The notes beneath the pieces were generated by a model that was not told the DNA's origin, did no database searches, and was given only the letters and a program-made list of their open reading frames with translations. From positions 44,621 through 108,620 of the forward strand of contig DYTN01000002.1 of NCBI GenBank assembly GCA_020725925.1: 64,000 nt of DNA, given 5' to 3'. The stretch is from Methanobacteriota archaeon (lineage in GTDB: Archaea > Thermoplasmatota > Thermoplasmata > UBA10834). The translations under genes and the position numbers were made by a program. Below, piece after piece: positions 64-48,208 of this stretch (positions within the stretch are counted from its first letter, which is position 1; every line of letters starts with the position of its first letter).

Positions 64-340
64 GTCCCAGACGGTCAGGAATGATTAACAGGGTAATTGT
101 TCCTTTTGGCGAAGCGCACATGGTCCCGCGGCGCTCGCAGACGGGCGAGGGCGCAGGCGCGCATAATAAGCTATGTGCCCGCGTCCTGTCCAGCATCGAT
201 TCCCATTTGGGTAACTATAAATATTCCGACTCTTCTATTTAGACAGGACGGGACGATGCGCAGGGCCCGACTTGGCCCTGGAACGCAACGGACTTATTCG
301 GGTCCCGTGCTCCCCCAACGAGCCAGGCATAGGAGAGCGG

Positions 341-3675: not shown

Positions 3676-4680
3676 ATGACGTCGTCCCCCCAGTACACTC
3701 ACTACTCTACTGACTCGACCGCCGACCGTATCAAGAAATCACCTAGATGGGGCAACGATGAGGGGGTCGCCGCGACGGTCGGCACCATCATGGCGCTCCT
3801 TGTCTTCCTGACCTTCTTCGGCATGTTCACGAACCAATTCGTCCCCGTTTGGATGGGCGACAACGAGAGCGCTCACATGTCGACTGCGATCCAACAGGTC
3901 ACGACGCTCAAGTCGTCAATCGACACCTCGATCTCGATCTACGCGAACAGCCTGGTCGCTGCGGCGCCGATGTCCGTGCCAATCACTCTAAGCGCGTCAG
4001 GCATACCCGTCTTCGCCGCTCCCACTGCGGGCATTCTGCAGTTCACACCCGAGGGAGTCCTTGTGCGCCCAATGTTCAATGTCACATACACCTACCAGTC
4101 CACGGGCGGGTATACGAACACGCTCAGCCCGGCCAACGACGGAAGGTCCGGGGGGATGCTCGACCTGTACTGTCCGAACAGGTACTATGTGGAGCAGCAC
4201 CTGACCTGGGAGAACGGCGCGGTGATACTGAACCAGAGCGACGGCGAGTTCGTCATCGCGGGACCGCAGTTCTCGGTCAGGGACCTGGGCACCGCGGGCT
4301 CGCCCAACAGGGCCGTGATGCTGACCCAGATCTCGCTCCAGGGCACCAACAAGACGATAGGGGGGACTGGCTCGAAGCTCGTCACGGCCGAGATGCAGTT
4401 CGCGGACACGAAGTCCTACGAGAACGCCAACGGTGCCTCGCTGACGATCACCATAGTCACGAAGCACGGCATGGCGTGGGCGAGGTACTTCAACTCGTCG
4501 CTCCAGAGCTCCCCCGCCGGCCTCGACTACGGGACGGACTTCTGGGTCAACTGGACCCTCCACGAGCAGACCAACAAGCTCGACAACTACTACACGGTCA
4601 CAATCACGATAGGCCAGGTCATGATACTCGACCACACGAAGGCGACAGTCAAGCTGTCAGTCGGCGAGCTGGGGGTCTAG
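3676..4680 (+). CDS. Membrane-anchored extracellular beta-rich protein, candidate (minor) pilin or pilus-associated protein of the downstream pilus operon.
   Basis: - ATG at 3676 (the ORF-track TTG at 3661 is less likely).
- A charged N-region is followed by a single hydrophobic helix VAATVGTIMALLVFLTFFGMF.
- A Thr/Ser/Gly/Asn-rich beta-rich ectodomain follows.
- Stop is 12 nt before the secretion ATPase start.
- An AT-rich TTAAATAT box lies ~45 nt upstream. Confidence 0.5.
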   Translation: MTSSPQYTHYSTDSTADRIKKSPRWGNDEGVAATVGTIMALLVFLTFFGMFTNQFVPVWMGDNESAHMSTAIQQVTTLKSSIDTSISIYANSLVAAAPMSVPITLSASGIPVFAAPTAGILQFTPEGVLVRPMFNVTYTYQSTGGYTNTLSPANDGRSGGMLDLYCPNRYYVEQHLTWENGAVILNQSDGEFVIAGPQFSVRDLGTAGSPNRAVMLTQISLQGTNKTIGGTGSKLVTAEMQFADTKSYENANGASLTITIVTKHGMAWARYFNSSLQSSPAGLDYGTDFWVNWTLHEQTNKLDNYYTVTITIGQVMILDHTKATVKLSVGELGV

Positions 4681-4691
4681 GGAGGAAGACG

Positions 4692-6446
4692 ATGGCCGAA
4701 ACACATCCGAAACCGAAGCATGAAGTGCCCGTCAGCGCCCCGAAGATGCCGCTGGGTTCGAGAATCTACCAGGGCTGGGTGGGCGCGCTGAGCAAGATGA
4801 AGTCCTCGCCCGTGGAGGTCAGACAGCCCAGGGGAGCCGCTGCCAGGAAGCGCGACTGGAGCCAGGGCAGGGGTTCGGTGTACACTCAGGTCCCGCCGAT
4901 AACCGACATCGACATCCAGGAGATGGGGTTCTACGGGGTCGAGGAGCCGTTCAGCTACGTCAGGGCCACATACAACGGCGCCACCAGCGAATACCTCCTT
5001 AACGTGATCGAGCCCGCGCTGACCGAGGAGGAGGAAGAGCTGCTGAGGCTGATTAAGGAGACCCTCGAGAAGACCCTCGAGTACGACTGGGAGAAGCTCA
5101 CGGTGATGGACAAGAAGACCTACATCGAGAGGAGCGTGGACAGCTACATCAAGTCCAGGGGGATGGCGATCGAGCCCATCTCCAAGGACAAGGTCTCATA
5201 CTTCATCGCAAGGGACTTCGTCGGCTATGGGCCAATTGACGCCCTGATGAACGACCACCACATCGAGGACGTTTCTTGCGACGGCGTTGGCATCCCGCTG
5301 TTCGTGTTCCACAGCAAGTTCGAGTCGATCAAGACGAACATCATGTTCGAGGACGAGAACGACCTGAACTCGTTCGTGGTCAACCTGGGCCAGAGGTGCG
5401 GGAAGCAGCTCTCGGTCTCAAACCCGATCCTGGACGGCACCGCACCGGAAGGGCACAGGGTCCAGGCGACGTACGCCAGGGAGGTCACGACCAGGGGCGC
5501 ATCGTTCACCATCAGGCGGTTCAAGGAGAAGCCCTTCACCCCCGTCGAGCTCATCAAGTACGGCACCGCATCTCCCGAGATCGTGGCGTACATGTGGCTC
5601 AGTGTGGAGCACGGCGAATCCGCGATCATATGCGGGGGAACAGCGAGCGGCAAGACCGCGACCTTGAACGCCATGGCACTTTTCATACCGCCCGGCGCGA
5701 AGGTCGTCACGATGGAGGACACCAGGGAGATCAACCTGCCCCACGAGAACTGGATCCCCGGCACCACCAGGTCAGGTGTGGGAGAGCGCGGGCCCGACGG
5801 CAAGGCCGCGGGCGAGATAGACATGTACGACCTGGTGAGGGCCTCGTTGAGGCAGAGGCCCAACTACATCATCGTCGGTGAGGTCAGGGGCAAGGAGACC
5901 TACACGATGTTCCAGGCGATGGCCACGGGCCACACAACATTCTCGACGATGCACGCGGACAGCGTCAAGGGCATGGTCAACAGGCTCGAGAACCCCCCCA
6001 TCAACTGCCCGAGGATACTGCTCACCGCCCTGAGGAACGTCATCATACAGACCCATGCCAGGGTGGGCATGGACATGGTCAGGCGCATAAAGCAGCTCAT
6101 AGAGATCGTGGGGTTCGAGCCCGAGACGAACGAACTGATCTCGAACACCGTCTACGAGTGGGACCAGGCAACTGACAAGTTCATCTTCAAGGGGCACAGC
6201 TTCCTGTTCGACAAGATCATGGAGATGAAGAACCTGACGCACGAGGAGCTCCTGCAGGAGTTCGAGCGGAGGGTGGACGTCGTGAAGTACATGGTCGCGA
6301 AGGACATCACTGACCACAGGGAGATCTGGGGGCTCATCAGGGAGTACTACAAGGACTCGAAGGTCACCTCGGAGCGAATCAGGAAGGAGCTCTATGGCTC
6401 CGCCCCCAGGCCCACGATGATACCCGGAGGTGAGGTCGCTGCCTGA
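4692..6446 (+). CDS. Type IV pilus/archaellum-type assembly ATPase (FlaI / TadA / GspE-VirB11 superfamily), paralog 1.
   Basis: - ATG 4692 preceded by GGAGG.
- Walker A GGTASGKTATLNA.
- Asp box TMEDTREINLPHENW.
- Walker B/His box region IIVGEVRGKETYTMFQAMATGH.
- Full-length FlaI-like N-terminal domain. Confidence 0.9.
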   Translation: MAETHPKPKHEVPVSAPKMPLGSRIYQGWVGALSKMKSSPVEVRQPRGAAARKRDWSQGRGSVYTQVPPITDIDIQEMGFYGVEEPFSYVRATYNGATSEYLLNVIEPALTEEEEELLRLIKETLEKTLEYDWEKLTVMDKKTYIERSVDSYIKSRGMAIEPISKDKVSYFIARDFVGYGPIDALMNDHHIEDVSCDGVGIPLFVFHSKFESIKTNIMFEDENDLNSFVVNLGQRCGKQLSVSNPILDGTAPEGHRVQATYAREVTTRGASFTIRRFKEKPFTPVELIKYGTASPEIVAYMWLSVEHGESAIICGGTASGKTATLNAMALFIPPGAKVVTMEDTREINLPHENWIPGTTRSGVGERGPDGKAAGEIDMYDLVRASLRQRPNYIIVGEVRGKETYTMFQAMATGHTTFSTMHADSVKGMVNRLENPPINCPRILLTALRNVIIQTHARVGMDMVRRIKQLIEIVGFEPETNELISNTVYEWDQATDKFIFKGHSFLFDKIMEMKNLTHEELLQEFERRVDVVKYMVAKDITDHREIWGLIREYYKDSKVTSERIRKELYGSAPRPTMIPGGEVAA

Positions 6447-7470
6447 GGTATCTGACGTATTTAGGAAGGTCGAGGTGAAGCCGGCTCAGTACCTCAAGAC
6501 CAAGATCACCATGGGCGAGGGGACCATCGGGCCGCACTCGGTCAGGCTCGTGAAGGGGACGGTGCCGGAGTACATCAAGCTCTCTCCGTTCCAGGACCTC
6601 GCCTGGAGGACCATGGGCAAGCGCGCCAAGACGAAGACCGCGCTCCTGCAGCAGCTCGAGGAGTCGCTCCTGAAGGCCCACATGAAGATCCGGCCGGAGG
6701 AGTACCTGGCGTATGTCCTCATGGCGACACTGGTGACCGCCGTCGTGGGGGTCGTGATAGCCATCGTGGTCGGCGTGCTGATCTTCGGCCTGATGGATGT
6801 CAACATCATGCTCAGGATAATGGTCTCGGTGGCAGCGATTCTGCTCCTTCCGATCATGACCTACTTCCTTCTGTTGGGCTCCCCCGGCTCGAAGGCGAAG
6901 TCCAGGAGCAGGGACATAGACAAGCGCATTGCGGCCGCGATGAGCTTCATATCCGCGATGGCGTCTGCGGACGTCAACATCGATGTCATCTTCAAGGAGC
7001 TGTCGAGGCAGAAGGTGTACGGGGAGATAGCCCACGAGTCCGCCTGGATCACGAGGGACACGGAGCTCCTCGGGTCCGATATCCTGTCCGCCATCAAGAA
7101 GGCCGCCAGGAGGTCCCCATCCGCGAAGTTCCAGGACTTCCTACAGGGCGTCATCACAACCTCCACCTCGGGCGGGCAGCTCAAGCCGTACTTCCTGCTC
7201 AAGGCGGAGGAGTTCCAGAAGGAGAACAAGCTCGCCCTCAAGTCCCAGATGGAGACCCTCGGGATGCTTGCTGAATCCTTCGTGACGGTCGTGGTGGCGT
7301 TCCCGCTGTTCCTCGTGCTCATCCTGGCGATCATGGCAATCGTCGGCGGCGGAGGCGACCCGGACTTCATGGTCATGATGCTCTATCTGATCGTCCTGGG
7401 GATGATCCCTGTGTCCCAGTTCGGCTTCGTGTTCGTCATCTGGAACATGTCAAAGGAGGCTTCGATGTAG
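6430..7470 (+). CDS. Pilus platform membrane protein with a single T2SSF domain (TadB/TadC/FlaJ-like), half 1.
   Basis: - Several TM helices.
- The cytoplasmic helical domain RDIDKRIAAAMSFISAMASA..QDFLQGV is typical of GspF/TadC family domains.
- Overlaps the upstream ATPase stop, indicating operon coupling. Confidence 0.75.
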   Translation: MRSLPEVSDVFRKVEVKPAQYLKTKITMGEGTIGPHSVRLVKGTVPEYIKLSPFQDLAWRTMGKRAKTKTALLQQLEESLLKAHMKIRPEEYLAYVLMATLVTAVVGVVIAIVVGVLIFGLMDVNIMLRIMVSVAAILLLPIMTYFLLLGSPGSKAKSRSRDIDKRIAAAMSFISAMASADVNIDVIFKELSRQKVYGEIAHESAWITRDTELLGSDILSAIKKAARRSPSAKFQDFLQGVITTSTSGGQLKPYFLLKAEEFQKENKLALKSQMETLGMLAESFVTVVVAFPLFLVLILAIMAIVGGGGDPDFMVMMLYLIVLGMIPVSQFGFVFVIWNMSKEASM

Positions 7471-8406
7471 ATGCCGCCGCAGAGGAAGATGTCGGAGCAG
7501 GAGCGGGAGAGGGCCCTCAAGAGGATCCTCGCGACTGAGCGGGCCGACAAGACCAGGACTATCGTGGGCGGCTCCATCGGAGTGGCTGCGGTCCTCATAT
7601 TCGCGGGCGTCGTGGACTACATAGGCAGTGCTGACCTGCCGCTGGACGCCATCGACTGGATCATATTCGCCATAGCCGCGATCATCGGCCCGTACGGCTT
7701 CTACGTGAGCGCCAGGGAGAAACGCGTGAGGGAGATTGAGATGAGGCTGCCCGACTTCCTCAGGGATGTCGCAGAGGCCGGGAGGTTCGGCATGACCCTC
7801 GCGGATGCCATCGTCGTCGCGAGCACCGGCAGGTACGGCAGGCTCACGCCGGAGATAAAGAAGATGGCCGCGCAGATAGAGTGGGGCGTGCCCGCCTCGG
7901 AGGCCATCAGGCTGTTCTCCGAGAGGGTCAAGACGCCCCTGGTGACGAGGATGGCATCCATCATCATGAAGGCGAACGATGCGGGCGGCAACGTCGCCGA
8001 CGTGCTGAGCATGGTCTCGCACGACGCGAAGGAGACCATCCTGACGCAGGAGGAGCGGGGCGTGACGATGCAGACCTATGTGCTCGTCGTGTACATCGCC
8101 TTCTTCGTGTTCATCGCGACAATCCTGATCCTGCAGGGCCAGTTCCTCCCGAAGATGGAGGAGGCGGGCACGCAGGTGAGCGAGGCGGCGGAGGCCCAGG
8201 GCGTCGGGGAGATACCGGGAGTGAGCATACAGGTCGACATCATACCAACAGTGGGGTTCATCTTCCTGCTGTCCGTGCTCGTACATGCGATTGGCGACGG
8301 GCTCCTGGCGGGCGTGATACAGAAGGGGAGCATCCCGATAGGCATGAGGCACAGCTTCATCATGCTGCTGGCCGGCTTCGTGTCCCTGAGGATCATAGGA
8401 GGCTGA
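7471..8406 (+). CDS. Pilus platform membrane protein with a single T2SSF domain (TadC-like), half 2.
   Basis: - Start codon abuts the previous stop (TAGATG).
- TM helices.
- T2SSF-like cytoplasmic domain LPDFLRDVAEAGRFGMTLADAI..RLFSERV. Confidence 0.75.
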   Translation: MPPQRKMSEQERERALKRILATERADKTRTIVGGSIGVAAVLIFAGVVDYIGSADLPLDAIDWIIFAIAAIIGPYGFYVSAREKRVREIEMRLPDFLRDVAEAGRFGMTLADAIVVASTGRYGRLTPEIKKMAAQIEWGVPASEAIRLFSERVKTPLVTRMASIIMKANDAGGNVADVLSMVSHDAKETILTQEERGVTMQTYVLVVYIAFFVFIATILILQGQFLPKMEEAGTQVSEAAEAQGVGEIPGVSIQVDIIPTVGFIFLLSVLVHAIGDGLLAGVIQKGSIPIGMRHSFIMLLAGFVSLRIIGG

Positions 8407-8410
8407 CAGG

Positions 8411-10126
8411 ATGACAGCAGAGACTGCGCAACCAAGGATCGTGCCTCTGGAGGCCCCGACGGAGGAGGCCAAGGAGAAGAAGAAGGGGCCTGGCCTGAAG
8501 TCCGCGTACTACAACTTCCTGCTCAAGCTCAAGCCCAAGCCCCTCATGGTCGCGCTCCCGAAGACGGAAGCGACCGTGGACATGTCCAGGATAACGGAGA
8601 TACCGAAGCTGACCGAGCCGAACATCGACGAGGTGGAGACGGCCCCGGTCAAGCAGAACTACTCCTATGTCAGGATCAAGTACGACAACAAGTCGAACGA
8701 GTACCTCTACGAGGTGATCGAGCCGCGGCTCTCAGAGGACGAGCGGGACGTGCTGAGCCTGCTCAAGGAGACGCTCGTCGCCTCCGTCGAGCACATGACG
8801 GAGGTCTCGACTGAGGAGAAGGAGAAGTACCTGAGGAGAATAGTCGAGCAGCTGATGCTCCAGCTGGCCGTCACCCTCAACCCCGTCTCGAAGGAGAGAG
8901 TGATGTACTACATAGCCAGGGACTTCATCGGGTACGGCGTCATCAACGTGATGATGATGGATCCGAACGTCGAGGACTGCTCCTGCGATGGCGTCGACAT
9001 CCCGTTCTACATATACCACAGGAAGTACGGTTCGATCAGGTCCAACCTCAGGTTCGCGGCCGAGGTGGAGCTTGACGGATTCGTCGTCTGGCTGGCCCAG
9101 AAGTGCGGCAAGCACATATCCGTGGCGAGCCCGCTCCTGGACGCCACCATCCCCGACGGCTCGAGGCTCCAGGCAACCCTGGGCAAGCACGTGACCAAGA
9201 GGGGCTCCTCGTTCACCATCAGGCGGTTCAAGGAGAACCCCTTCACGCCCCTGGACCTGCTCAAGTTCAAGACCATGGGCACCGAGATGATGGCCTACCT
9301 GTGGATCGCCATCGAGCACGGGCAGTCGATGCTCGTGTGCGGAGGCACCGCGAGCGGCAAGACGACCACGCTCAACGCCGTCCTGCTGTTCATCCCGCCC
9401 CAGATGAAGATAGTCTCGATAGAGGACACTAGGGAGCTCAACCTCCCGCATGAGAACTGGGTCCCGGGCCTGACTAGGGAGGGCTTCGGCGGCAAGAGCG
9501 CGATCACCGGCCGCGCCACGGGCGAGATAGACATGTTCGACCTGCTCACATCGGCCATGAGGCAGAGGCCCCAGTACCTGATGGTCGGAGAGGTCAGAGG
9601 CAAGGAGGCGTACGTCGTCTTCCAGGCCATGGCCACGGGCAAGACCTGCTACTCCACCTTCCACGCAGAGGATGTCCAGGCGATGGTGCACAGGATGGAG
9701 AACGACCCCATCAACCTCCCCAGGGCGCTCATCACGGCGCTCAATGTCGTGCTCCTCCAGGCGCAGGTCAAGGTCGGCACGAAGATGACCAGGCGGGTCA
9801 AGTCGCTCACTGAGATCGTCGGGTTCGACCCCGAGACCAACGAGCTCATCACCAACTCTGTCTACACCTGGAACCCGGCGGACGACACCTTCAACTACAG
9901 CGGCCACAGCTATGTCTACGAGAAGGTCAGGATGGCCAGGAACTGGTCCCCCAGGGAGATGGAGAGGGAGCTCAAGAGGCGCGTGGACATCCTGGAGTAC
10001 ATGAAGAAGATAGGCATGGACAGCCACAGGAAGGTCGCGACGATCATCTCGGCGTACTACAAGGACCCCGAGAAGGTCATGAAAGAGGTCCGGGCGAAGC
10101 TGGCCGAGGGCGCGGAGAGGATCTGA
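8411..10126 (+). CDS. Type IV pilus assembly ATPase (FlaI/TadA family), paralog 2.
   Basis: - AGGAGG 8 nt upstream of the ATG.
- Walker A GGTASGKTTTLNA.
- Asp box SIEDTRELNLPHENW.
- MVGEVRGKEAYVVFQAMATG.
- Roughly 50-55% identical to the 4692..6446 product over its full length. Confidence 0.9.
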   Translation: MTAETAQPRIVPLEAPTEEAKEKKKGPGLKSAYYNFLLKLKPKPLMVALPKTEATVDMSRITEIPKLTEPNIDEVETAPVKQNYSYVRIKYDNKSNEYLYEVIEPRLSEDERDVLSLLKETLVASVEHMTEVSTEEKEKYLRRIVEQLMLQLAVTLNPVSKERVMYYIARDFIGYGVINVMMMDPNVEDCSCDGVDIPFYIYHRKYGSIRSNLRFAAEVELDGFVVWLAQKCGKHISVASPLLDATIPDGSRLQATLGKHVTKRGSSFTIRRFKENPFTPLDLLKFKTMGTEMMAYLWIAIEHGQSMLVCGGTASGKTTTLNAVLLFIPPQMKIVSIEDTRELNLPHENWVPGLTREGFGGKSAITGRATGEIDMFDLLTSAMRQRPQYLMVGEVRGKEAYVVFQAMATGKTCYSTFHAEDVQAMVHRMENDPINLPRALITALNVVLLQAQVKVGTKMTRRVKSLTEIVGFDPETNELITNSVYTWNPADDTFNYSGHSYVYEKVRMARNWSPREMERELKRRVDILEYMKKIGMDSHRKVATIISAYYKDPEKVMKEVRAKLAEGAERI

Positions 10127-15521: not shown

Positions 15522-16517
15522 CTAACCGCTTTTTCGCTTCACTATTTTCTTGACAAATATCTGCGGTTTCCTCGTCTCCGAGGGCTTGTCAGAGACATCT
15601 TCCGAGCCGACCTTCACCTCGAGCTTCGTCAGCGATTCCTTGATGTTCACGCCGCAGGCGTAGCACATCAGGGCGTCCCGGCTGACCATCGTCTTGCAGT
15701 TGAGGCAGGGGATCTCTTCATCCTCGGACCCCTCCTCTGCCTTCACGGGCTCGCCGAACTCCTCCTCGCGTATCTTCTGCCCGCAGGCGTAGCACATGAT
15801 CGCGTCCTTGCTGATCACGGTCCTGCAGCCGGGGCAGAGCATCTCGTCCTCGCTCAGCGTGGCTGCGAGCGCGGGCTCGGGCTCAATCCTGACCGGCGCG
15901 GCTGCCACCTTGGTCAGCATGTCCTTCTGGCGGTCCAGGAGCTTCCTCGCGTCCTCCGAGAGCTTCTCCCTGTCGCGCCTGAGGGACTCCTCCTCCTCCG
16001 CGAGCGCGCGCTCCCTCGCGACGAGCGTGTCCCTCCGGGCAGTGATCTGCTCGAGCACCCGCTGGATCTCCTCCTCGGACTTCTTCAGCAGGTCCTCCCT
16101 GCTCAGGAGCCTCTTCCGCCTTTCGGTCACATCCGCCTGGAGGGTGTTGATCTCCGCAAGCCTGTCCGAGGCGTCCTTCTCCCTCGCCTCCGCAGACGTG
16201 ACCGCCGCCTTCGATACCGCCTCGAGCTTGGCTAGCTCGGCGGCCCTCGAATCAAGCTGGCCCGCCCTCTCCTTAAGGGATGACTCCTGTCTCTTGAGTT
16301 CCTCAACGCGCGCCTCGACCGAGGATTCCTTCTGCCTGATCGAATCCTCCTTCTCCCTGAGGCGCTGCTCGAGCGCCTCGACCTCGGACTTCTGCTTCAG
16401 GACGTCCTCGCGCTCCGCCTTGAGCTCGAGGTCCTTCTTCCTGACCTCGGCCTCCTGGGTCTTGAGGCGCTTGACCGCGTCCTCGATTATCTGGGAGATC
16501 GTCTGGTCTTCTGCCAT
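15522..16517 (-). CDS. Coiled-coil protein with two C-terminal zinc ribbons (DZR-type).
   Basis: - ~230 aa of Glu/Lys/Arg/Leu-rich heptads.
- Then CPGCRTVISKDAIMCYACG and CLNCKTMVSRDALMCYACG.
- Followed 80 nt later, on the same strand, by a KaiC-like gene. Confidence 0.7.
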   Translation of the reverse strand: MAEDQTISQIIEDAVKRLKTQEAEVRKKDLELKAEREDVLKQKSEVEALEQRLREKEDSIRQKESSVEARVEELKRQESSLKERAGQLDSRAAELAKLEAVSKAAVTSAEAREKDASDRLAEINTLQADVTERRKRLLSREDLLKKSEEEIQRVLEQITARRDTLVARERALAEEEESLRRDREKLSEDARKLLDRQKDMLTKVAAAPVRIEPEPALAATLSEDEMLCPGCRTVISKDAIMCYACGQKIREEEFGEPVKAEEGSEDEEIPCLNCKTMVSRDALMCYACGVNIKESLTKLEVKVGSEDVSDKPSETRKPQIFVKKIVKRKSG

Positions 16518-16596: not shown

Positions 16597-17313
16597 CTAC
16601 GGCGCGCTCATGAGCGGGCCGAGCACCTGGATGCCGTTCCTCCCGACCTCGATCGCGTGCCTTTCCATCGAGTGCTCCGAAGCCCTCATCTTCTCCACCT
16701 GCAGGAACCTCACGAGCTTCCCACGCTGCCTGTCCAGGCCGAGCATCAGTATGCCGTCCGCGAGGAAGCCCTCGTTGCCCAGGAGCTGGCTCTCGCCCGA
16801 GAGCGAGCGCTCCATTATGATGAAGCATGTCAGGTTGTTGTCCCTGATCATCTTGAAGAAATAGAACATCTTCTTGCGCATGTCGCTCACGTTCTCCATG
16901 AGCGAGTAGAGCGCGCCGAGCGAGTCGAGGACGAATATCGAGAACTTGTCCCCGTGGGTCTTCTTGAAGCGCTGGATCATCTTCTCGATGAAGAGGACGT
17001 AGTCGGTCTGCGCCTCCTGGCCTATGACCTCGTCTATCTGGTCGACCTCCCTGAGGTCGGTCAGGTCCGAGATCTGCATCTTCATCGAGAGCTTCGCGCC
17101 TACGCTGTCCATGTTCTTCAGGTGGCTGTCGACCGTCTCCTCCAGGGTGGTGTACAGCCCGAACTCGTTCTTGTCTTTGAGGTAGCTGCTCATGAGAGAA
17201 TAGCAGAATGTGGTCTTCATCGAGCCCGGGGGTCCAGTGACCAAGACGACCTTCGGCCGGTCGATGTCGTTCTTGAAGACCTTCTCCAAGCCCGGAACAG
17301 AATCCTTGAACAA
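16597..17313 (-). CDS. KaiC/RecA-superfamily single-domain (pseudo)ATPase (COG0467-like).
   Basis: - TTG start 7 nt after AGGAGG.
- VVLVTGPPGSMKTTFCYSL..FVLDSLGALY..CFIIMER matches the KaiC-like fold.
- P-loop has Met in place of the second Gly. Confidence 0.75.
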   Translation of the reverse strand: MFKDSVPGLEKVFKNDIDRPKVVLVTGPPGSMKTTFCYSLMSSYLKDKNEFGLYTTLEETVDSHLKNMDSVGAKLSMKMQISDLTDLREVDQIDEVIGQEAQTDYVLFIEKMIQRFKKTHGDKFSIFVLDSLGALYSLMENVSDMRKKMFYFFKMIRDNNLTCFIIMERSLSGESQLLGNEGFLADGILMLGLDRQRGKLVRFLQVEKMRASEHSMERHAIEVGRNGIQVLGPLMSAP

Positions 17314-24814: not shown

Positions 24815-26974
24815 ATGGTCACAGACCTCCGCATACCTGAGGGAATCGTCGTCCGGACCGCAAAAGGCGGTTCGGAGTCGCTCAAGACGATATTGGCAGA
24901 CCTCAAGCAATACAGCTTCACCGGCTACGTCAAGGTCACTCTGGAGAAGGAGATAATGAGCTCCATCGGATACCTTGTCGTGGAGCAAGGCGTCCCCGTG
25001 ATGGCCATATACGAGTTCGAGAAGTCGAAGCCGAGGGAGCTCAAGAGGATATACACTGGTGAGAAGTCGCTCAGGTTCATCCTGGAGGATTCCCAGGACA
25101 AGGCATCGAACATCGAGCTGCACAGCAGGGTCCCGAGCGAGGAATTCGAGAGGCGGTTCCCAGACTCCCGCCTTGCCGAGGCCCCAGTGGCCGCAAGGCC
25201 CTCTAGGGCCGAGACCGAGCGCGTCATCGAGGAGGCCGTGGAGGAGCCGGAGCAGGTGGACGCGCAGCGCGAGATCATCGAGCTCTGGCGCAGGAAGGGC
25301 TTCAAGGTCGACACTCTGGAGGAGGCGCTTGAGGAGGGGCCGCAGGCGCTGACGACGGAGCTATCAGCGTTCGAGCAGGACGCCCAGAGGCTGAAGCAGT
25401 TCGAGGTCGTGCTCAACAACTTCCCCGTGCTCGGGCACGAGGAGGAGATCCAGGAGATCAGGACGAAGCTCGACGACCGCACGAGGATAGCGGAGATCGA
25501 ATCGGACGTCGAATTCCTCCAGGAGAAGATCCGCCGGAAGATCCAGAAGCGCAAGGCCGATGAGGAGTCCATCCGGCAGGAGATGGAGAAGAAGAGGCAG
25601 GAGGAGAAAGCTGCCGATGTCTACGACCTGATCCTGCGCTACCAGACGCAGCCCGAGGAACAGGTCGAGAAGAGGTGCCCGAGGTGCGGGGGGCCCGTGG
25701 GCCCGGACGGCAAGTGCCCGAAGTGCAGCGTGGCAGAGGAGGCGCCCGCGCCCAGCTTCGTGAAGCCCTTGCCGGAGGGCATGAGGTTCGACAACTTCGT
25801 CGTCGGCCCGGGCACCAAGTTCCCCGTGGCCGCAGCCGTCGCCGTCGCCGAAGCTCCCAGCAAGACCTACAACCCGCTGCTGCTGTTCGGAGGCTCGGGC
25901 CTGGGGAAGACCCACCTCATCACCGCGATCGGCATCCAGGTGAAGCAGAGGTCTCGGAACGCCAAGGTGAACTACGTGCCCGCGGACAGGTTCGTCGAGG
26001 CGATCGGGCAGGCCCAGGACGACGCCCTGAGGAAGAGGATCCGGGAGGACCTGAAGCGCTCGGACCTCCTGCTGGTCGACGACATGCAGTTCCTCGCGGC
26101 CAACGAAAACGCCCAGCTGGAGATGGCGCAGGTCATCGAATACCTGATAGATGCAAAGAGGCAGGTCGTGTTCGCGAGTGACAGGCTCCCGGCGCAGCTG
26201 CCTGGCTTCAGCGACAGGCTCAACTCCCGCATAATGCTCGGGCTAACAACGGACCTCCCACCGCCCGACATGGACACGAGGGTGAAGATACTGAGGATGA
26301 AGGCCCAGGAGAAGGGCCTGAAGCTCAGCGACGAGATCATCGGCTACATCGCCGAGAGGGTCACGACGAACGTCAGGGAGCTGGAGAGCACGCTCACCAA
26401 GATTGTCGCCTTCTCATCGATAATGAAGCTCGACGTGGACCTGAACCTCGTCTCCGACATACTGAAGCCCTTGGCCCCCGTCCAGGAGACGAGGAAGGAG
26501 ATCATGAAGGAGGTCAAGGCGTCGCCAGGGCACTGCTACATGATAGAGGAGGAGAGGCCGCTGTACAGCAACGTCCTCCTCGGCAGGAAGATGGACGAGG
26601 GCTGTGCCGGCCTGGTCATCACCCGCCTCAACCCCAAGCGCCTGAGGGACGAGTTCAAGGTCGCCCCCGAGATACTCTGGCTCACGGACAAGGAGAGCTC
26701 CCAGGAGAAGACCGTCCCACCGTCGCTCGAGATGCTCATCCACACGATCCAGGAGTTCATGGAGACCGAGGAGAAGGGCATGATCGTCCTGGACGGCCTC
26801 CAGTACCTCGTCAGCAGCACCAACTTCGAGGCCGTGCTCAGGTTCCTCAGGAGCCTGATTGACGAGATCTCGGAGTCGAACTGCATACTCGCGCTGTCGA
26901 TCAGCCCCGAGACCCTGAAGCCGCAGGAGGTCTCCATCCTCGAGCGGGAGATGGAGGTCCTCAACCTCACTTGA
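24815..26974 (+). CDS. DnaA-family AAA+ ATPase (domain III/IIIb complete; no DnaA domain IV) embedded in a novel archaeal architecture: DUF4388-like N-terminal domain, acidic linker, internal zinc ribbon, DnaA-like AAA+, C-terminal DUF835/KaiC-like P-loop-less domain.
   Basis: - Walker A NPLLLFGGSGLGKTHLITAIG.
- Walker B LLLVDDMQFL.
- SDRLP..FSDRLNSRIMLGL, with the arginine-finger Arg retained.
- Box VIII/sensor II TTNVRELESTL.
- Collinear with E. coli DnaA residues ~130-370 at roughly 35-40% identity.
- Zinc ribbon RCPRCGGPVGPDGKCPKCS lies just N-terminal of the AAA+ core.
- C-terminal 170 aa (HCYMIEEERP..GLVITRLNP..IVLDGLQYLV..) resembles the DUF835-like gene at 46785..47381. Confidence 0.8.
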   Translation: MVTDLRIPEGIVVRTAKGGSESLKTILADLKQYSFTGYVKVTLEKEIMSSIGYLVVEQGVPVMAIYEFEKSKPRELKRIYTGEKSLRFILEDSQDKASNIELHSRVPSEEFERRFPDSRLAEAPVAARPSRAETERVIEEAVEEPEQVDAQREIIELWRRKGFKVDTLEEALEEGPQALTTELSAFEQDAQRLKQFEVVLNNFPVLGHEEEIQEIRTKLDDRTRIAEIESDVEFLQEKIRRKIQKRKADEESIRQEMEKKRQEEKAADVYDLILRYQTQPEEQVEKRCPRCGGPVGPDGKCPKCSVAEEAPAPSFVKPLPEGMRFDNFVVGPGTKFPVAAAVAVAEAPSKTYNPLLLFGGSGLGKTHLITAIGIQVKQRSRNAKVNYVPADRFVEAIGQAQDDALRKRIREDLKRSDLLLVDDMQFLAANENAQLEMAQVIEYLIDAKRQVVFASDRLPAQLPGFSDRLNSRIMLGLTTDLPPPDMDTRVKILRMKAQEKGLKLSDEIIGYIAERVTTNVRELESTLTKIVAFSSIMKLDVDLNLVSDILKPLAPVQETRKEIMKEVKASPGHCYMIEEERPLYSNVLLGRKMDEGCAGLVITRLNPKRLRDEFKVAPEILWLTDKESSQEKTVPPSLEMLIHTIQEFMETEEKGMIVLDGLQYLVSSTNFEAVLRFLRSLIDEISESNCILALSISPETLKPQEVSILEREMEVLNLT

Positions 26975-43705: not shown

Positions 43706-43765
43706 CGCCACGATGACGAGAAGAACCCAGCTGACCTGTGATGAGTGATGGGCGATCCGAGTGGC
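43706..43765 (+). ncRNA. Candidate C/D-box sRNA (weak): variant C box CGAUGA, D' CUGA, C' UGAUGA, variant D CCGA, with terminal stem CCAC/GUGG. A GC hairpin sits immediately upstream.
   Basis: Box spacing fits archaeal C/D sRNAs (about 12-14 nt guides, 4 nt D'-C' spacer). Two boxes deviate from consensus. Confidence 0.2.
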
Positions 43766-43832: not shown

Positions 43833-44249
43833 ATGGTGACAGGGTTCGACTACCTGGGCCAGGACAAGGCTCTGCAGGAGCATTGGTTGAGGAGGCTCAT
43901 CGCCATAGTCGTCGACGCCGTCCTGATCTACGCGCCTGTGCTGATCCTCCTACGGATACTCGGCACTCCGATCCTGTTCCCCGGGTTCCTTACGGGCGCG
44001 CTGTTTTTCTTCTACTGCGCCCTGTTCGACCTCGCCATAGGCGGCACTGTCGGCAAGATGCTCATGCGGCTGAAGACGGTCTCTGTCACCGGGCAGGTGA
44101 ACGTCTCGCAGGCACTGATGAGGAACGTGTCGAAGGTCTTCGGGCCGCTGCTGCTCCTGGACTGGATAATAGGGATGGCGGTGGACACGCACGACCCGAG
44201 GCAGAAGTGGACCGATCAGGTAGCCCGGACCTCGGTGATGCTCCACTAG
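43833..44249 (+). CDS. RDD-family membrane protein.
   Basis: R..IA..VD, 3 TM helices and GTVGKMLMRLK, as in RDD domains. Confidence 0.7.
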   Translation: MVTGFDYLGQDKALQEHWLRRLIAIVVDAVLIYAPVLILLRILGTPILFPGFLTGALFFFYCALFDLAIGGTVGKMLMRLKTVSVTGQVNVSQALMRNVSKVFGPLLLLDWIIGMAVDTHDPRQKWTDQVARTSVMLH

Positions 44250-44485
44250 GGCACCCACCAGACCCAGCCGCGCTTCTCGAGCGAGGCCTCGCCCCTGATC
44301 AGGCCCCTCCTCTTCATCTTGGTCAGGAAGATGACAGTCTGGTCAGGGCAGCGCTTGTGCTCCTTCCTCGCGCGCCTCTCGATCTCCATGGTGCTCATCG
44401 AGCCTTCGAGCTTGAGCAGGTCGATGACGAACCTCTCGGCCGAAGAGACGTCCATGACCACGATATCAGGGCCTGAGTCCTTCAT
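44246..44485 (-). CDS. Small winged-helix-like protein (hypothetical regulator).
   Basis: 79 aa with a basic, helix-rich composition. Overlaps the RDD stop by 4 nt. Confidence 0.4.
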   Translation of the reverse strand: MKDSGPDIVVMDVSSAERFVIDLLKLEGSMSTMEIERRARKEHKRCPDQTVIFLTKMKRRGLIRGEASLEKRGWVWWVP

Positions 44486-44553: not shown

Positions 44554-45117
44554 CTAGTCTCCCTGGAAGATCAGCGAGTAGATCTCCGAGCTTGTGGGGT
44601 CGTGCATGAGGAAGAGCTGGTAGGTCACCGTGTTATCGAACTCTCCCCCGCTGGTGGTGAGCGTGAAGCTGTCCCCCTGGTTCACGAGGCCGTTCCCGGC
44701 AAGGTCCGTGATGTTGATGAACACCGTCAGCGAACCCAGGGTCTGGCTCCCGAAGCTCTTGACGACCGGCGCGGAGCCGGTCATGACAGTCGTCGTGATG
44801 TTGGTGAAGGCGATTGCGTTGGTCCCGTCCGTGAGCATGACGCTGATGTCGCTCCAGACGGTCTCCCGCGAGAAGGGCGTGAATGTGAACTTGAAGCCAT
44901 CCGTGACAGACGCCTTGGTGAGGCTCGCGACGGGCGGGGAGTTGCTGGAGCCCAGTCCGAGCCCGAAGACCATGACATACAGCGTCGCGGCGAGCACGAC
45001 GGTGATGCCGACGAGGAGGATCGTCGCTATGACGGGTGAAACGGCGGGTGTGTCGAGTCTCCTTCGGCACCAGACCTTCTTCATGGCACTCATCCCAGCG
45101 GGGGACGGGACGGGCAA
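44554..45117 (-). CDS. Archaeal type IV pilin (class III signal peptide, DUF1628-like), paralog A.
   Basis: - ...MKKVWCRRRLDTPAVSPVIATILLVGITVVLAATLYVMV.
- Then a beta-rich Thr/Ser-rich domain.
- Likely start is the internal Met at 45084. Confidence 0.75.
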   Translation of the reverse strand: MPVPSPAGMSAMKKVWCRRRLDTPAVSPVIATILLVGITVVLAATLYVMVFGLGLGSSNSPPVASLTKASVTDGFKFTFTPFSRETVWSDISVMLTDGTNAIAFTNITTTVMTGSAPVVKSFGSQTLGSLTVFINITDLAGNGLVNQGDSFTLTTSGGEFDNTVTYQLFLMHDPTSSEIYSLIFQGD

Positions 45118-45293: not shown

Positions 45294-45857
45294 CTAGCCG
45301 TTGAAGCTTGCGTGGCAGATCTCAGCGGATGTCGGGTCGTGCATTATGGTGACGGTGTAGGTCACCGATGCCGAGAAGGTTGTCGCGCCCGTCTGGAAGG
45401 TCATGTAGTCTCCCTGGTTCACATAACCGTTGCCCGCGAGGTCCGTGAGGTTGCACCAGACCGTCAACGAGCCGAGAGCCCTACCGGCCGTGGTCGGGTC
45501 GTCGTACTCCGCTGGGGGCGTCGAGTCAGTCAGTGCGGCTGTCGTCGGTGCCCATGTCAGCGTGTTCGTCCCGTCCGTGAGCTGGATCGTGATGTCACCC
45601 CATGGGGTGTCCTTGCTCATCGGGGCGAAGGTGTACTTCACGCCGTAGTTCACCGTCGTCTTCGTAATGCTCGACGTTGGGGTTTGAGACGTTGTCCCGC
45701 CGAATCCCAGGACCATGACATACAGCACGGCCGCTAGAACGACGGTGATGGCAACCATTAGAATGGTCGCGATCACAGGGGACACTGCCTCGGCATCCTT
45801 GCGGATTGCCCAGATCTTCTTCATGTTTTGTCCTCCTGCAGGCCTTTCGGCCCGCAC
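45294..45857 (-). CDS. Archaeal type IV pilin (class III signal peptide), paralog B.
   Basis: - ...MKKIWAIRKDAEAVSPVIATILMVAITVVLAAVLYVMV.
- Same architecture as paralog A.
- Likely start is the Met at 45824.
- TATA-like CTATTTAAA on the minus strand ~45880. Confidence 0.75.
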   Translation of the reverse strand: MRAERPAGGQNMKKIWAIRKDAEAVSPVIATILMVAITVVLAAVLYVMVLGFGGTTSQTPTSSITKTTVNYGVKYTFAPMSKDTPWGDITIQLTDGTNTLTWAPTTAALTDSTPPAEYDDPTTAGRALGSLTVWCNLTDLAGNGYVNQGDYMTFQTGATTFSASVTYTVTIMHDPTSAEICHASFNG

Positions 45858-46057
45858 GGGATGTAATACGCCGGTGCTGAGTTTAAATAGCTTTGCGGCT
45901 GGTTCTCATAGACGAGCGTTATCGCTTTCGATAACTGCCGAATTGGACCATCTGGCTATGTCGCATTCCTTAGGGGACACAAGAAGACTATGTCTTCTTG
46001 GGCCTGTGAGGCCAGTACTAGAAACGACGACATTCCCGGAAGAGGCGACACACCGGC

Positions 46058-46783
46058 CTAGCCGGGCTTGATGCCCGTCCTGTCGTAGATCGCTGGTATT
46101 ATGCCCACCATCGCGGGCCTGTTCCTGACCTTCTGCACTACTATGTACTTCTTGAACTCGTGCCCGACCTTCTCCCTGTCGAGCTCTATTATCACGTCCG
46201 CGAGGTCCTCAAGGCTGCTCTGGATCTTCGAGTCATGCACGCCCTTCAGCATCGTGTTCAGCGTGACGCTCTCGGAGTGCTGCGTGTGGGCCTTGATCGT
46301 GCGCATGGCCATGAGCACCTCCTGGCTCTCGTAGTTCTCGAGGTAGAAGTCCAGCGAGTTGATCACGACCCTGAAGGGCGGGTTCAGCTTCGATATCTCA
46401 TACGCCAGGAAGGTGAGGAAGTTCTCCTCCTTGGCGGCGTCCTGGTCCCTGAACTTCCTGATGTCGCTGAGCGTGATGCCCTCCTGCCTGAACCTGCTCA
46501 CCTCGAGCTTCCTGGCGAGGACCTTCTCGTAGTACTTCCTTCCGATGTTGACTATCTTGATATCCGTCCTCCAGCCGTACTCGCGCATGACTGCCAGGAC
46601 ATCCTCGTCCCGCTCCGTGGACGTGAAGTAGGTCACGGGCTCGGTGCCCGCGGAGGCGAACTGCTTCGCGAAGAACTCCGTGCCGGAGCCCGGGCCGCCC
46701 ATCACGAGCAGGGTCGAGCCCTTCAGGATTCCTCCTCCGAGGTGCTCGTCCAGGGCAGGTATCCCTATGCTCGTGAACTGCAT
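46058..46783 (-). CDS. KaiC/RecA-like protein with degenerate P-loop (GGPGSGTE, Lys missing); likely pseudo-ATPase.
   Basis: Domain pattern GIPALDEHLGGGILKGSTLLVMGGPGSGTEF..VVINSLDF. Confidence 0.7.
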   Translation of the reverse strand: MQFTSIGIPALDEHLGGGILKGSTLLVMGGPGSGTEFFAKQFASAGTEPVTYFTSTERDEDVLAVMREYGWRTDIKIVNIGRKYYEKVLARKLEVSRFRQEGITLSDIRKFRDQDAAKEENFLTFLAYEISKLNPPFRVVINSLDFYLENYESQEVLMAMRTIKAHTQHSESVTLNTMLKGVHDSKIQSSLEDLADVIIELDREKVGHEFKKYIVVQKVRNRPAMVGIIPAIYDRTGIKPG

Positions 46784-46784
46784 G

Positions 46785-47381
46785 TCAGCCCTCCCGCAGC
46801 TTGCCCGCGTGGATGCCGTGGTCGCACACGAGGTTGACCATGTTGCTTATGTCCGGGGTCGAGTGCTCCTCGACTGTGAGTATCACGGTGTACGCGTCCC
46901 TGGACCTCAGCCCGGACACCAGTATGTGGAGGAGCTCAGACAAGATCCAGTTGTTGTTGTGTATGGCCAGGGAGTTGATGGAATCGATCACGACGACCTT
47001 GCCCTCGGACTGCGACCGCCTGATCAGGTACTCGACCTTGAGCATCAGGTTCTCCAGCATCGTCGGGCTCTCGACCAGGGTGGTCTTCTCGTCCTGCGCT
47101 GCGGTCGAGGCGCCCATCATGATGTGCGATATGCAGTCGACGAAGAAGACCCTCTCGGAGTCTATGTCCAGGGCCTCGAGCACGCGCTTGATGGCCTCGG
47201 AGGATATCGTCGCGGTGACGTATATCGTGTCCATCTTCTTCTTGTTCGCGAACAGGTCCACGACGCCTCGGATGACATCAAGGTAGTTGTCCACGCTCAT
47301 CTGCAGGGAGACCGCCGAGGCCTCGGGCATCTCGAGGAGTTCGTCCGCGATCTGTTGCGCGCTGGCCAGCTCCGGGCTCAT
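46785..47381 (-). CDS. P-loop-less KaiC-like/DUF835-like domain protein.
   Basis: - No Walker A.
- ..TIYVTATIS..VVVIDSINSLAI..TVILTVEEH pattern.
- Resembles the C-terminal domain of the DnaA-like protein. Confidence 0.6.
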   Translation of the reverse strand: MSPELASAQQIADELLEMPEASAVSLQMSVDNYLDVIRGVVDLFANKKKMDTIYVTATISSEAIKRVLEALDIDSERVFFVDCISHIMMGASTAAQDEKTTLVESPTMLENLMLKVEYLIRRSQSEGKVVVIDSINSLAIHNNNWILSELLHILVSGLRSRDAYTVILTVEEHSTPDISNMVNLVCDHGIHAGKLREG

Positions 47382-48208
47382 TGCGTGCTACCTCCTTTCA
47401 GGAGCGGCACCAGGAGGACACCCATGGGCGTGAGGTCCAGCACGTACTTGGCCCTCGAGTGCATCGTGCCCCTCATCTTGATCACCTGGAGCGTCCTGAG
47501 CAGGTCGCCCCTCCGCTCCATGTTCGCCATGAGCACGATCCCGTCTGCGATGGCCTCCTCGACCCCGAAGCTGGAGTACGATGTGGAATCGGCTGGCACC
47601 TCACCGACCAGGATGGATGTGCAGCCCAGGTCGGAGAGCGCCTTGCTGAGCTTGAGTATGAAGTCCCTGATCTTCTCGGATGTCTTCAGCTTGTAGCAGA
47701 CGGAGGTGATGGAGTCTATCACGAGCCTCTTGCTTCCGAGCTCCTTGGCCAGGCTGGCCAGGGCGGACACCAGCAGGTCTATCTCCTCCATGCTCAGGTC
47801 TGGCTTCGTGAGCCCGAGCCGCTCGTACATGATGGGCATGTCCACGAACACGAGCCTGCCGGACCTGACCAGGGTCCTGTCGAAGAACCTGTAGGGGATG
47901 ATGTTCGCCAGGAGCTTCTCTGAGTTCTCCGTGACGGATATGAAGAGGGAGTTTTCCCCCCTGATGGCGCCATGGATCAGGAACTCGAGCGCGAGCGAGG
48001 TCTTGCCCGTCCCGCAGCTGCCCGTGAGCAGGACCGTGTTCGTCCTCGGTATCCCGCCGTACAGGATGGTGTCGAGCCCCTCCACGCCAGTCGCGCAACG
48101 TTCCCTGTCGCCAGGCTTCAGAGGCATCGTTCCTTGAGAATGACCTGTTCCACTTATTATGGTTTCTTCTTGGACGTGCGAGCGCACATACGCGCCAGTC
48201 AGTACCAT
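47378..48208 (-). CDS. KaiC/RecA-like ATPase with intact Walker A (GSCGTGKTSLALEF).
   Basis: - GIPRTNTVLLTGSCGTGKTS.
- Walker B LVIDSITSV.
- Overlaps the downstream gene by 4 nt (operon). Confidence 0.75.
   Translation of the reverse strand: MVLTGAYVRSHVQEETIISGTGHSQGTMPLKPGDRERCATGVEGLDTILYGGIPRTNTVLLTGSCGTGKTSLALEFLIHGAIRGENSLFISVTENSEKLLANIIPYRFFDRTLVRSGRLVFVDMPIMYERLGLTKPDLSMEEIDLLVSALASLAKELGSKRLVIDSITSVCYKLKTSEKIRDFILKLSKALSDLGCTSILVGEVPADSTSYSSFGVEEAIADGIVLMANMERRGDLLRTLQVIKMRGTMHSRAKYVLDLTPMGVLLVPLLKGGSTQ

Follow-up and report, generated by a model that had tools for sequence, protein, structure and literature searches.

KaiC ATPases are associated with type IV pilus loci in archaea (PMC4858521), and inactivated KaiC (iKaiC) domains are regarded as signalling modules (PMC5847659). 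As summarised in the latter paper, Makarova, Galperin and Koonin (2017) proposed that archaeal KaiC-like ATPases and their iKaiC partners act as signal-transduction hubs. In Haloferax, the KaiC-like protein CirA represses motility (PMC10983859). Proposed as the main signalling hubs of archaea, KaiC-like ATPases almost never come with defined partners or a defined target. Here we analyse a locus of three KaiC-family genes, A, B and C (positions 46058-48208, minus strand), in a 64,000-nucleotide stretch of contig DYTN01000002.1 from an archaeon of the Thermoplasmatota. This stretch, referred to as the window, has 62% GC and its closest relatives are metagenome-assembled genomes (MAGs) of uncultured Thermoplasmata. 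We propose, giving the proposal an even chance of being right, that A-B-C is one unit encoding a KaiC-family switch of three paralogues, which would form a mixed RecA-type ring or stack wired to a type IV pilus.

Like the published KaiC/iKaiC modules and the pilus-associated KaiC proteins, the locus encodes a single-domain KaiC ATPase together with catalytically inactivated KaiC folds and has type IV pilin genes close by. As in the published modules, the domain of B is also found in fusions with sensor-like domains and with DUF835. The locus departs from those modules in being a fixed trio (one active member, one without a P-loop and one mutated in Walker A and B), the order and junctions of which are conserved across Thermoplasmatota, and from pilus-associated KaiC in adjoining structural pilin genes instead of the machinery. 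The most fitting description of the trio is that of a distinct and deeply conserved version of the published KaiC/inactivated-KaiC theme, and its families may already be listed in the 2017 survey. It offers a compact and testable case, with one predicted active subunit and two distinct, strongly conserved putative pseudo-ATPases, a cultured carrier (Aciduliprofundum) and, in most genomes, a candidate output, namely a major pilin gene with a conserved candidate operator and a leader hairpin.

A translationally coupled three-gene operon

The region 46058-48208 holds three successive open reading frames (ORFs) on the minus strand, with a GC content at third codon positions (GC3) of 0.84-0.91. A first-pass annotation, made from the window sequence, had described a three-gene KaiC-like operon with two degenerate members, and this description was borne out by the coupling of the genes and by the motif losses in B and C. 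It had also stated that the genes overlap, which is correct for A and B (ATGA, 4 nt) but not for B and C, which lie 1 nt apart (TGAcATG). The sequence GGAGG is found 9 nt upstream of the B start and GGGAGGG upstream of the C start, each of these Shine-Dalgarno (SD) sites being located within the respective upstream gene. A-B-C is one transcription unit with three translationally coupled genes.

The start of gene A is most likely Met28 (47378..48127, minus strand, 249 aa) and not position 48208, the beginning of the longest ORF, which had been adopted earlier. This revision rests on a conserved promoter about 30 nt upstream, on orthologue lengths of 245-260 aa and on an independent gene call of 249 aa. 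The promoter (48154..48170, minus strand) consists of a B recognition element (BRE)-like AAGAAAC and a TATA-like ATAATAA, ∼30 nt 5′ of the Met28 ATG, and falls within the stretch that the longer ORF would treat as coding. Its sequence, AAGAAAC(A/C)ATAATA(T/A), is kept in nearly all of 26 aligned sequences (the window and 25 species loci), a few of them with minor variants. The string AAGAAGA before the TATA-like box was considered as a palindrome half-site and rejected, as it belongs to the BRE-like element. At the other end of the operon, an alignment of 28 orthologous intergenic regions revealed a conserved box directly after the C stop codon (46022..46049, minus strand), GTCGC...CGACGTTTT, with a T-run at its end. 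This box is probably the operon terminator.

Gene A encodes an intact ATPase of the KaiC CI type

For the motif comparison, each window copy was aligned with orthologues drawn from 78 species-level genomes, 69 for A, 76 for B and 66 for C. Gene A encodes a single-domain protein matching the Pfam KaiC family PF06745 with an E-value of 8.9e-53 (179.5 bits, cut-off 26.6). Its best relatives of solved structure are KaiC CI domains, aligned over the full length with E 1.7e-53, and CI scores 115 bits versus 68 bits for CII. The motifs GSCGTGKT (Walker A), VTE, LVIDS (Walker B), GVEE and KMRGT are kept throughout the 70 aligned sequences, with a consensus of GS-GTGK(T) for Walker A and hhhDS for Walker B, in agreement with the annotation of an intact KaiC-like ATPase. 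A is the only member of the trio that matches the Walker A consensus GxxxxGK[ST], and it also carries the Walker B Asp, the catalytic Glu and the trans-acting Lys/Arg. Its catalytic motif VTE has Thr-Glu at the position of the Glu-Glu of KaiC. RadA and Rad51 likewise have Thr-Glu at this position.

A resembles cyanobacterial KaiC in its full-length match to CI, in the GVEE of CI common to both and in the RecA-type hexamer fold. It differs in having one domain instead of two and in lacking CII-type phosphosites, GVEE standing at the position of the CII Ser/Thr phosphosites, and neither KaiA nor KaiB is encoded nearby (no KaiB-like gene was seen in the A-B-C neighbourhood). The protein does not reach the cut-offs of the circadian KaiC models NF006799 (144.9 bits versus 408) and TIGR02655 (103.7 versus 546). 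With the PADLOC defence models, A matched mad8 in part (29 bits) and B and C gave nothing above noise; no defence-system reading is supported.

The relatives of A bear on a rival explanation, in which the trio would be a recombination mediator of the RadA-paralogue type, comparable with Rad55-Rad57, Shu or crenarchaeal aRadC, with an ATPase and two degenerate paralogues acting in DNA repair and the pilin adjacency a historical accident. The family to which the proteins belong is COG0467, ‘KaiC/GvpD/RAD55', and C is named ‘RAD55 family ATPase' in sources. The RadA paralogue SSO2452 is matched by A (E 1.7e-19) and also by the structure model of B, and the triad is highly conserved in lineages without pilin linkage. 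However, A is much nearer to KaiC CI than to RecA (E 1.5e-9), and it scores far below the cut-offs for RadB (NF006861, 23.9 bits versus 278), archaeal RadA (NF003301, 15.2 versus 259) and bacterial-type RadA/Sms (TIGR00416, 28.1 versus 403). Moreover, there is neither an N-terminal helix-hairpin-helix nor a polymerisation motif, and no repair gene is conserved nearby. An all-against-all ORF comparison of 25 distant loci revealed no conserved neighbours besides the pilins. We regard a role as recombination mediator as very unlikely.

Genes B and C encode predicted pseudo-ATPases

Gene C (46058..46783, minus strand, 241 aa) encodes a full-length KaiC-like protein, with matches to PF06745 (E 1.1e-20, 74.4 bits, cut-off 26.6), to DUF7125 (30.5 bits) and to PH0186 (E 7e-13). 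The first reading of this protein, a KaiC-like member without the Walker A Lys, was right about the Lys but underestimated the loss. The Walker A sequence is GGPGSGTE, in which Lys is replaced by Thr and Ser/Thr by Glu, and the Walker B sequence is VVINS, in which Asp is replaced by Asn. Across the orthologues, Walker A reads GxPG[SAC]G[TAIM]E, with both Lys and Ser/Thr replaced and the Glu invariant; at Walker B, Asn is found within the clade of the window and Asp in distant orthologues. Of 120 database homologues of C, 119 carry the variant Walker A GxPG[SAC]Gx-E, as do 66/66 orthologues from species-level genomes. C retains TER, with one catalytic Glu, and the trans-acting Lys/Arg motif K-x-R-N (K-V-R-N in the window). 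Its match to Elp4/PAXNEB stays below the cut-off (26.1 bits versus 28) and covers the N-terminal 28 residues only.

Gene B (46785..47381, minus strand, 198 aa) encodes a KaiC fold with no P-loop and a truncated C-terminus. It matches the Pfam KaiC family over residues 48-178 (E 1.3e-8, 34.9 bits, cut-off 26.6), as do all 63 of its relatives analysed. A glycine-rich loop is absent from every B orthologue aligned. B keeps the Walker B Asp only, having no catalytic Glu and ending ahead of the arginine-finger hairpin. The AlphaFold (AF2) model, computed from an alignment of database homologues, shows a RecA/KaiC fold with a predicted local distance difference test (pLDDT) score of 89, in which strand 23-28 passes straight into helix 30-46, leaving no P-loop. 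Neither the B profile searched against Protein Data Bank (PDB) sequences, which gave no match, nor single-sequence phmmer, which gave noise only, could place B; this took a fold comparison, in which Foldseek returned PH0284 as the top match (TM 0.72) and also KaiC CI and SSO2452. Invariant motifs of B are FVDCISH-MMG, VESPTMLEN, DS-NSLAIHN and ILSEF-H.

The earlier label for B, a P-loop-less KaiC/DUF835-like protein, holds for the P-loop but not for DUF835 (PF05763), for which B scores 15.7 bits against a gathering cut-off of 33.1. The score for DUF7504 falls just below the threshold (24.1 bits, cut-off 27). At E<=0.01, 44 of the 63 relatives of B match DUF7090, 38 match DUF7504 and 16 match DUF835. 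By these profile matches, B appears to be nearer to KaiC, DUF7090 and DUF7504 than to DUF835. Matches to Elong_Iki1 are below the Pfam cut-offs both in B (14.7 bits, cut-off 22.5) and in the 33/63 relatives that match Elp5/Iki1 weakly.

When the B profile was run against 1.84 billion representatives, 31 clusters were recovered at E<=1e-30, corresponding to the orthologues, and 607 at E<=1e-10. Many of the 607 are long proteins with a C-terminal B-type domain, which either follows TPR/SNAP repeats and CARDB/NPCBM-type domains or forms a tandem with DUF835, and the longer proteins matched carry DUF7504. Fusion to such varied partners is typically the behaviour of signalling domains. Because the B-type domain recurs as the C-terminal module of many long proteins, B is predicted to be a stand-alone representative of a signalling domain of the inactivated-KaiC type (DUF7504/DUF7090 class) that is widespread. 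Proteins P0390, P0440, P0394, P0398 and P0428 each have a C-terminal B-type module, and the tandem with DUF835 occurs in either order.

A tie had been suggested between B and the C-terminus of a DnaA-like protein encoded elsewhere in the window. This archaeal protein (24815-26974, plus strand) is in itself an odd fusion, consisting of a bacterial-type DnaA ATPase domain (Bac_DnaA, E 2.7e-48), an Hda lid and a C-terminal DUF835. By profile comparison the proposed tie is not specific: hhalign with the B orthologue profile gave a non-significant E 0.15 (probability 0.4%) against the DnaA-like C-terminus, and stronger matches to A (0.003), to C (0.004) and to the C-terminal domain of an 827-aa protein described below (4e-4). 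The two appear to be related at the superfamily level only, both being inactivated KaiC-type domains, as indicated by the fraction of B relatives that touch DUF835 (16/63) and by the fusion of B-like (DUF7504) and DUF835 domains elsewhere.

The trio is co-inherited and under purifying selection

The triad recurs in related genomes. We recovered 78 species-level loci, and A is directly upstream of B in 72 of the 72 that could be assessed, with C directly downstream in 67 of them. The A/B junction is −4 nt in 37/69 loci and within ∼7 nt in nearly all, and the B/C junction is +1 nt in 44/66. Identity to the window proteins ranges from 58 to 87% for A, 45 to 88% for B and 40 to 88% for C. The trio recurs, degenerate motifs included, in the complete genome of Aciduliprofundum sp. 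MAR08-339.

That B and C are decaying pseudogenes or products of sequencing errors, a reading for which the missing motifs are the sole argument, is refuted by several observations. The variants are fixed in hundreds of homologues, B and C each having hundreds that are at least 80% identical; the frames are intact and the fold of B is confidently predicted. Among eight close genomes, the ratio of non-synonymous to synonymous substitution rates (dN/dS) was 0.127 for A, 0.084 for B and 0.092 for C, values that are approximate as dS is ∼1. Sequencing error, the outcome that would have overturned the first-pass annotation, cannot account for degenerate motifs that recur in nearly all C homologues, across species-level genomes and in Aciduliprofundum, in genes with dN/dS ∼0.09. 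B and C are thus predicted to be genuine pseudo-ATPases under purifying selection.

Gene C has been lost in one subclade, in which the order is A-B-pilin (loci L055, L057, L060 and L065); locus L068 also lacks C, and lacks the pilin too. Retention of A-B after the loss of C would suit a reading in which the paralogues are independent, each making a homo-oligomer of its own with a role unrelated to the others, and have only the operon in common, as would the fact that B-type domains work in many different proteins. The strict gene order, the translational coupling and the co-inheritance across orders all speak against such independence. In addition, a homo-oligomer of B would have no nucleotide-dependent behaviour, since B has neither P-loop nor Arg finger. 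Independence of the three is in our judgement highly improbable.

Type IV pilin genes follow the operon

Two genes for archaeal type IV pilins lie directly 3′ of the operon on the same strand. The first (45294..45824) encodes a class III signal peptide, AVSPVIATILMVAI, and matches Pilin_N (E 4e-13) and arch_flag_Nterm; the second (44554..45093, start approximate) matches Pilin_N with E 5e-10. A model of the pilin N-terminus detected pilins in 52 of 62 assessable loci, at 100-300 nt 3′ of the triad and nowhere else within those 20-kb loci. The linkage holds with a different upstream neighbour (L061, L066) and after the loss of C (L055, L057, L060 and L065).

Between C and the pilin promoter (45900-46050), 28 aligned sequences (the window and 27 species loci) show near base-for-base conservation. 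This interval includes a conserved GCGACATAGCCAGATGT box and a perfect palindrome, AAGAAGAC-N3-GTCTTCTT (45981..45999, no strand assigned), which is present in 28/28 sequences and has symmetric substitutions in L013 and L028. No second copy was found in the window, pilus machinery locus included. The palindrome is a candidate operator. The BRE/TATA box of the first pilin gene, GCAAAGCTATTTAAAC (45881..45896, minus strand), is nearly invariant in the same intergenic alignment.

The 5′ leader of the pilin mRNA contains a hairpin, GCGGGCC-GAAA-GGCCTGC (45838..45855, minus strand), which abuts the SD sequence AGGAGGAC ahead of the ATG at 45824. A stem of 4-7 bp against the SD was found in 44 of 48 sequences (the window and 47 orthologous loci), with 17 distinct stem pairs and compensatory changes. 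The hairpin is mostly of 7 bp with a GNRA loop and starts near the expected transcription start, and it may serve in mRNA stabilisation or translation control. RNAalifold returned no structure for this leader, because the stems are unequal in length and misaligned, and an explicit stem search in the orthologous loci was used in its place.

The pilins are followed by s79, a gene for a small 79-aa protein (44246..44485, minus strand) that is syntenic in ∼30 loci and has an invariant CPDxTV...W.W motif. Among 30 orthologues, weak Pfam matches were obtained to Penicillinase_R (9), MarR (3) and TrmB (3), on which basis s79 is probably a winged-helix regulator. A single-sequence AF2 model gave three helices with pLDDT 61, too weak for a fold search. 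In L064 (7694-8465), immediately 5′ of the triad, the s79 gene and a gene for a stand-alone DUF835 protein overlap, an arrangement that suggests that s79 partners with inactivated-KaiC proteins.

The pilus machinery is encoded 36 kb from the triad (3849-10126, plus strand) by a T2SSE ATPase gene (3849-6446), two T2SSF genes and a second T2SSE ATPase gene (8411-10126); the two ATPases, of 865 and 571 aa, both have a PilB3_C domain. Just upstream (272-2755, plus strand) is the gene for an 827-aa protein that combines a Zn-ribbon with a helix-hairpin-helix and a long coiled coil and has a KaiC/DUF7504 domain at its C-terminus. The Walker A sequence of this protein, GPPFTGKE, shares with C a Glu in place of Ser/Thr, and its ESPT motif resembles that of B. 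We count the position of this further inactivated-KaiC protein ahead of the machinery locus in favour of the pilus link. The unusual layout is that of the CdiP pilus of Cuniculiplasma divulgatum (PMC12448462), which likewise has two assembly ATPases, a platform split over two genes and remote pilin genes. The likeness concerns the gene layout, and KaiC-like genes beside pilins are not reported in PMC12448462.

These genes, together with the similarity of C to ArlH (FlaH), bear on another explanation, according to which the trio would be an accessory, structural or motor-related, to the type IV pilus: an A/B/C ring would sit on the PilB-like ATPases, as ArlH does on ArlI, and would gate assembly instead of transcription. 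ArlH is the best NCBIfam match of C (E 4.2e-13, nearly full length), pilins are adjacent, the two-ATPase machinery is preceded by an inactivated-KaiC protein, and ArlH, from the literature, is KaiC-like and interacts with the motor ATPase. Like C, it is single-domain and tied to a type IV filament system. However, ArlH is an ATP-binding, autophosphorylating protein with functional Walker motifs and a gene beside arlI and arlJ, whereas C has neither the Walker A Lys nor the Thr, and its neighbours are HPS-RraA and pilins, with no arl genes. Against the equivalog cut-off of 215 bits of the ArlH/FlaH model NF052589, C scores 49.5 and A 30. The triad is also outside the machinery operon, 36 kb away, and some genomes carry it without adjacent pilins. 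We consider such an accessory role unlikely.

A mixed ring as the predicted switch

In RecA-type rings such as those of KaiC and RecA, each nucleotide site is composed of the P-loop of one subunit and the Lys/Arg finger of its neighbour. The motif losses of the trio are complementary in these terms: A keeps all elements, C the finger and one Glu, and B the Walker B Asp only. Because of this complementarity, a mixed A/B/C oligomer is the simplest model, and such losses are to be expected for one catalytic subunit with inactive partners in a RecA-type ring. The earlier suggestion of one active subunit with pseudo-enzyme partners is plausible on these grounds, and the trio is probably a regulatory switch complex.

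In the proposed switch, A would be a slow CI-type ATPase and the sole subunit of the ring to bind and hydrolyse ATP. B and C would assemble with it as a mixed RecA-type ring or stack, in which the only complete catalytic site would combine the P-loop of A with the Lys/Arg finger of A or C. B, by way of its invariant patch (VESPTMLEN / DS-NSLAIHN / ILSEF-H), would serve as adaptor or as output surface. As A resembles the CI (ATPase) half of KaiC, a conformational switch would be expected and not a phosphorylation clock. In the lineage of the window, the output would most likely be the type IV pilus, reached by either of two routes. One would be pilin expression, possibly through s79 and the palindrome upstream of the pilin promoter; the other would be assembly by the two-ATPase machinery at 3849-10126, in an ArlH-like manner.

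By analogy, three RecA-fold paralogues, some of which have lost ATPase motifs, are also found in Elp456, a hetero-hexamer (PMC5286394), and in the Rad55-Rad57 and Shu complexes. Those act as hetero-oligomeric rings, whereas a ring is only predicted here, and the trio has no link to Elp3, which is not encoded nearby, or to repair genes. Should the trio assemble, it would be a case in prokaryotes of the ring of ‘active enzyme plus dead paralogues' known from eukaryotes in Elp456 and the Rad51-paralogue complexes; otherwise it is an ordinary paralogue cluster. A more specific version of the mixed-ring proposal can be formulated, in which an obligate hetero-hexameric A/B/C ring, with catalytic sites of one type only, formed by the P-loop from A and the finger from C, would be the prokaryotic counterpart of Elp456 and the Rad51 paralogues, would be ancestral to Thermoplasmatota and would control pilin transcription through s79 and the AAGAAGAC-N3-GTCTTCTT operator. 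We judge this version decidedly unlikely. If true, it would delineate a complete KaiC-centred pathway without phosphorelay, comprising an input core, adaptors, an output factor and a target promoter.

Several observations weigh against a mixed-ring switch wired to the pilus. The range of identity of A across orders (58-87%) fits a housekeeping role equally well. No pilins adjoin the triad in ten assessable loci or in Aciduliprofundum, where it is followed by DUF763 and transketolase genes, so the core function of the triad cannot depend on pilin adjacency. Close relatives share a whole syntenic block (HPS-RraA, HtpX, RDD and Tsr3), which makes the adjacency in these genomes weak evidence. The pilin gene does not share a transcription unit with the operon, each having its own promoter and a terminator-like box lying in between. 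By tblastn, s79 was found in the close clade and L064 only, and neither its sequence nor its model establishes the predicted fold. Finally, two apparent gene fusions are not of the Rosetta-stone kind and were rejected as evidence of interaction: the ‘B-C' fusion in L071 (2021-3325) is a frameshift and the ‘A-B' fusion in L072 (4-1275) a deletion of ∼28 N-terminal residues of B, both on short MAG contigs.

Other loci in the window

No Rfam family scored above threshold in the region. A candidate C/D-box sRNA is located between the Tsr3-like and RDD genes (43709-43762, plus strand); its best Rfam match, sR2, scores 27.6 bits, short of the gathering score of 42. In an additional single-domain KaiC-like protein of the window (16597-17313, minus strand), Walker A deviates to GPPGSMKT, and the gene is followed by one for a coiled-coil/double zinc-ribbon protein (15522-16517, minus strand).

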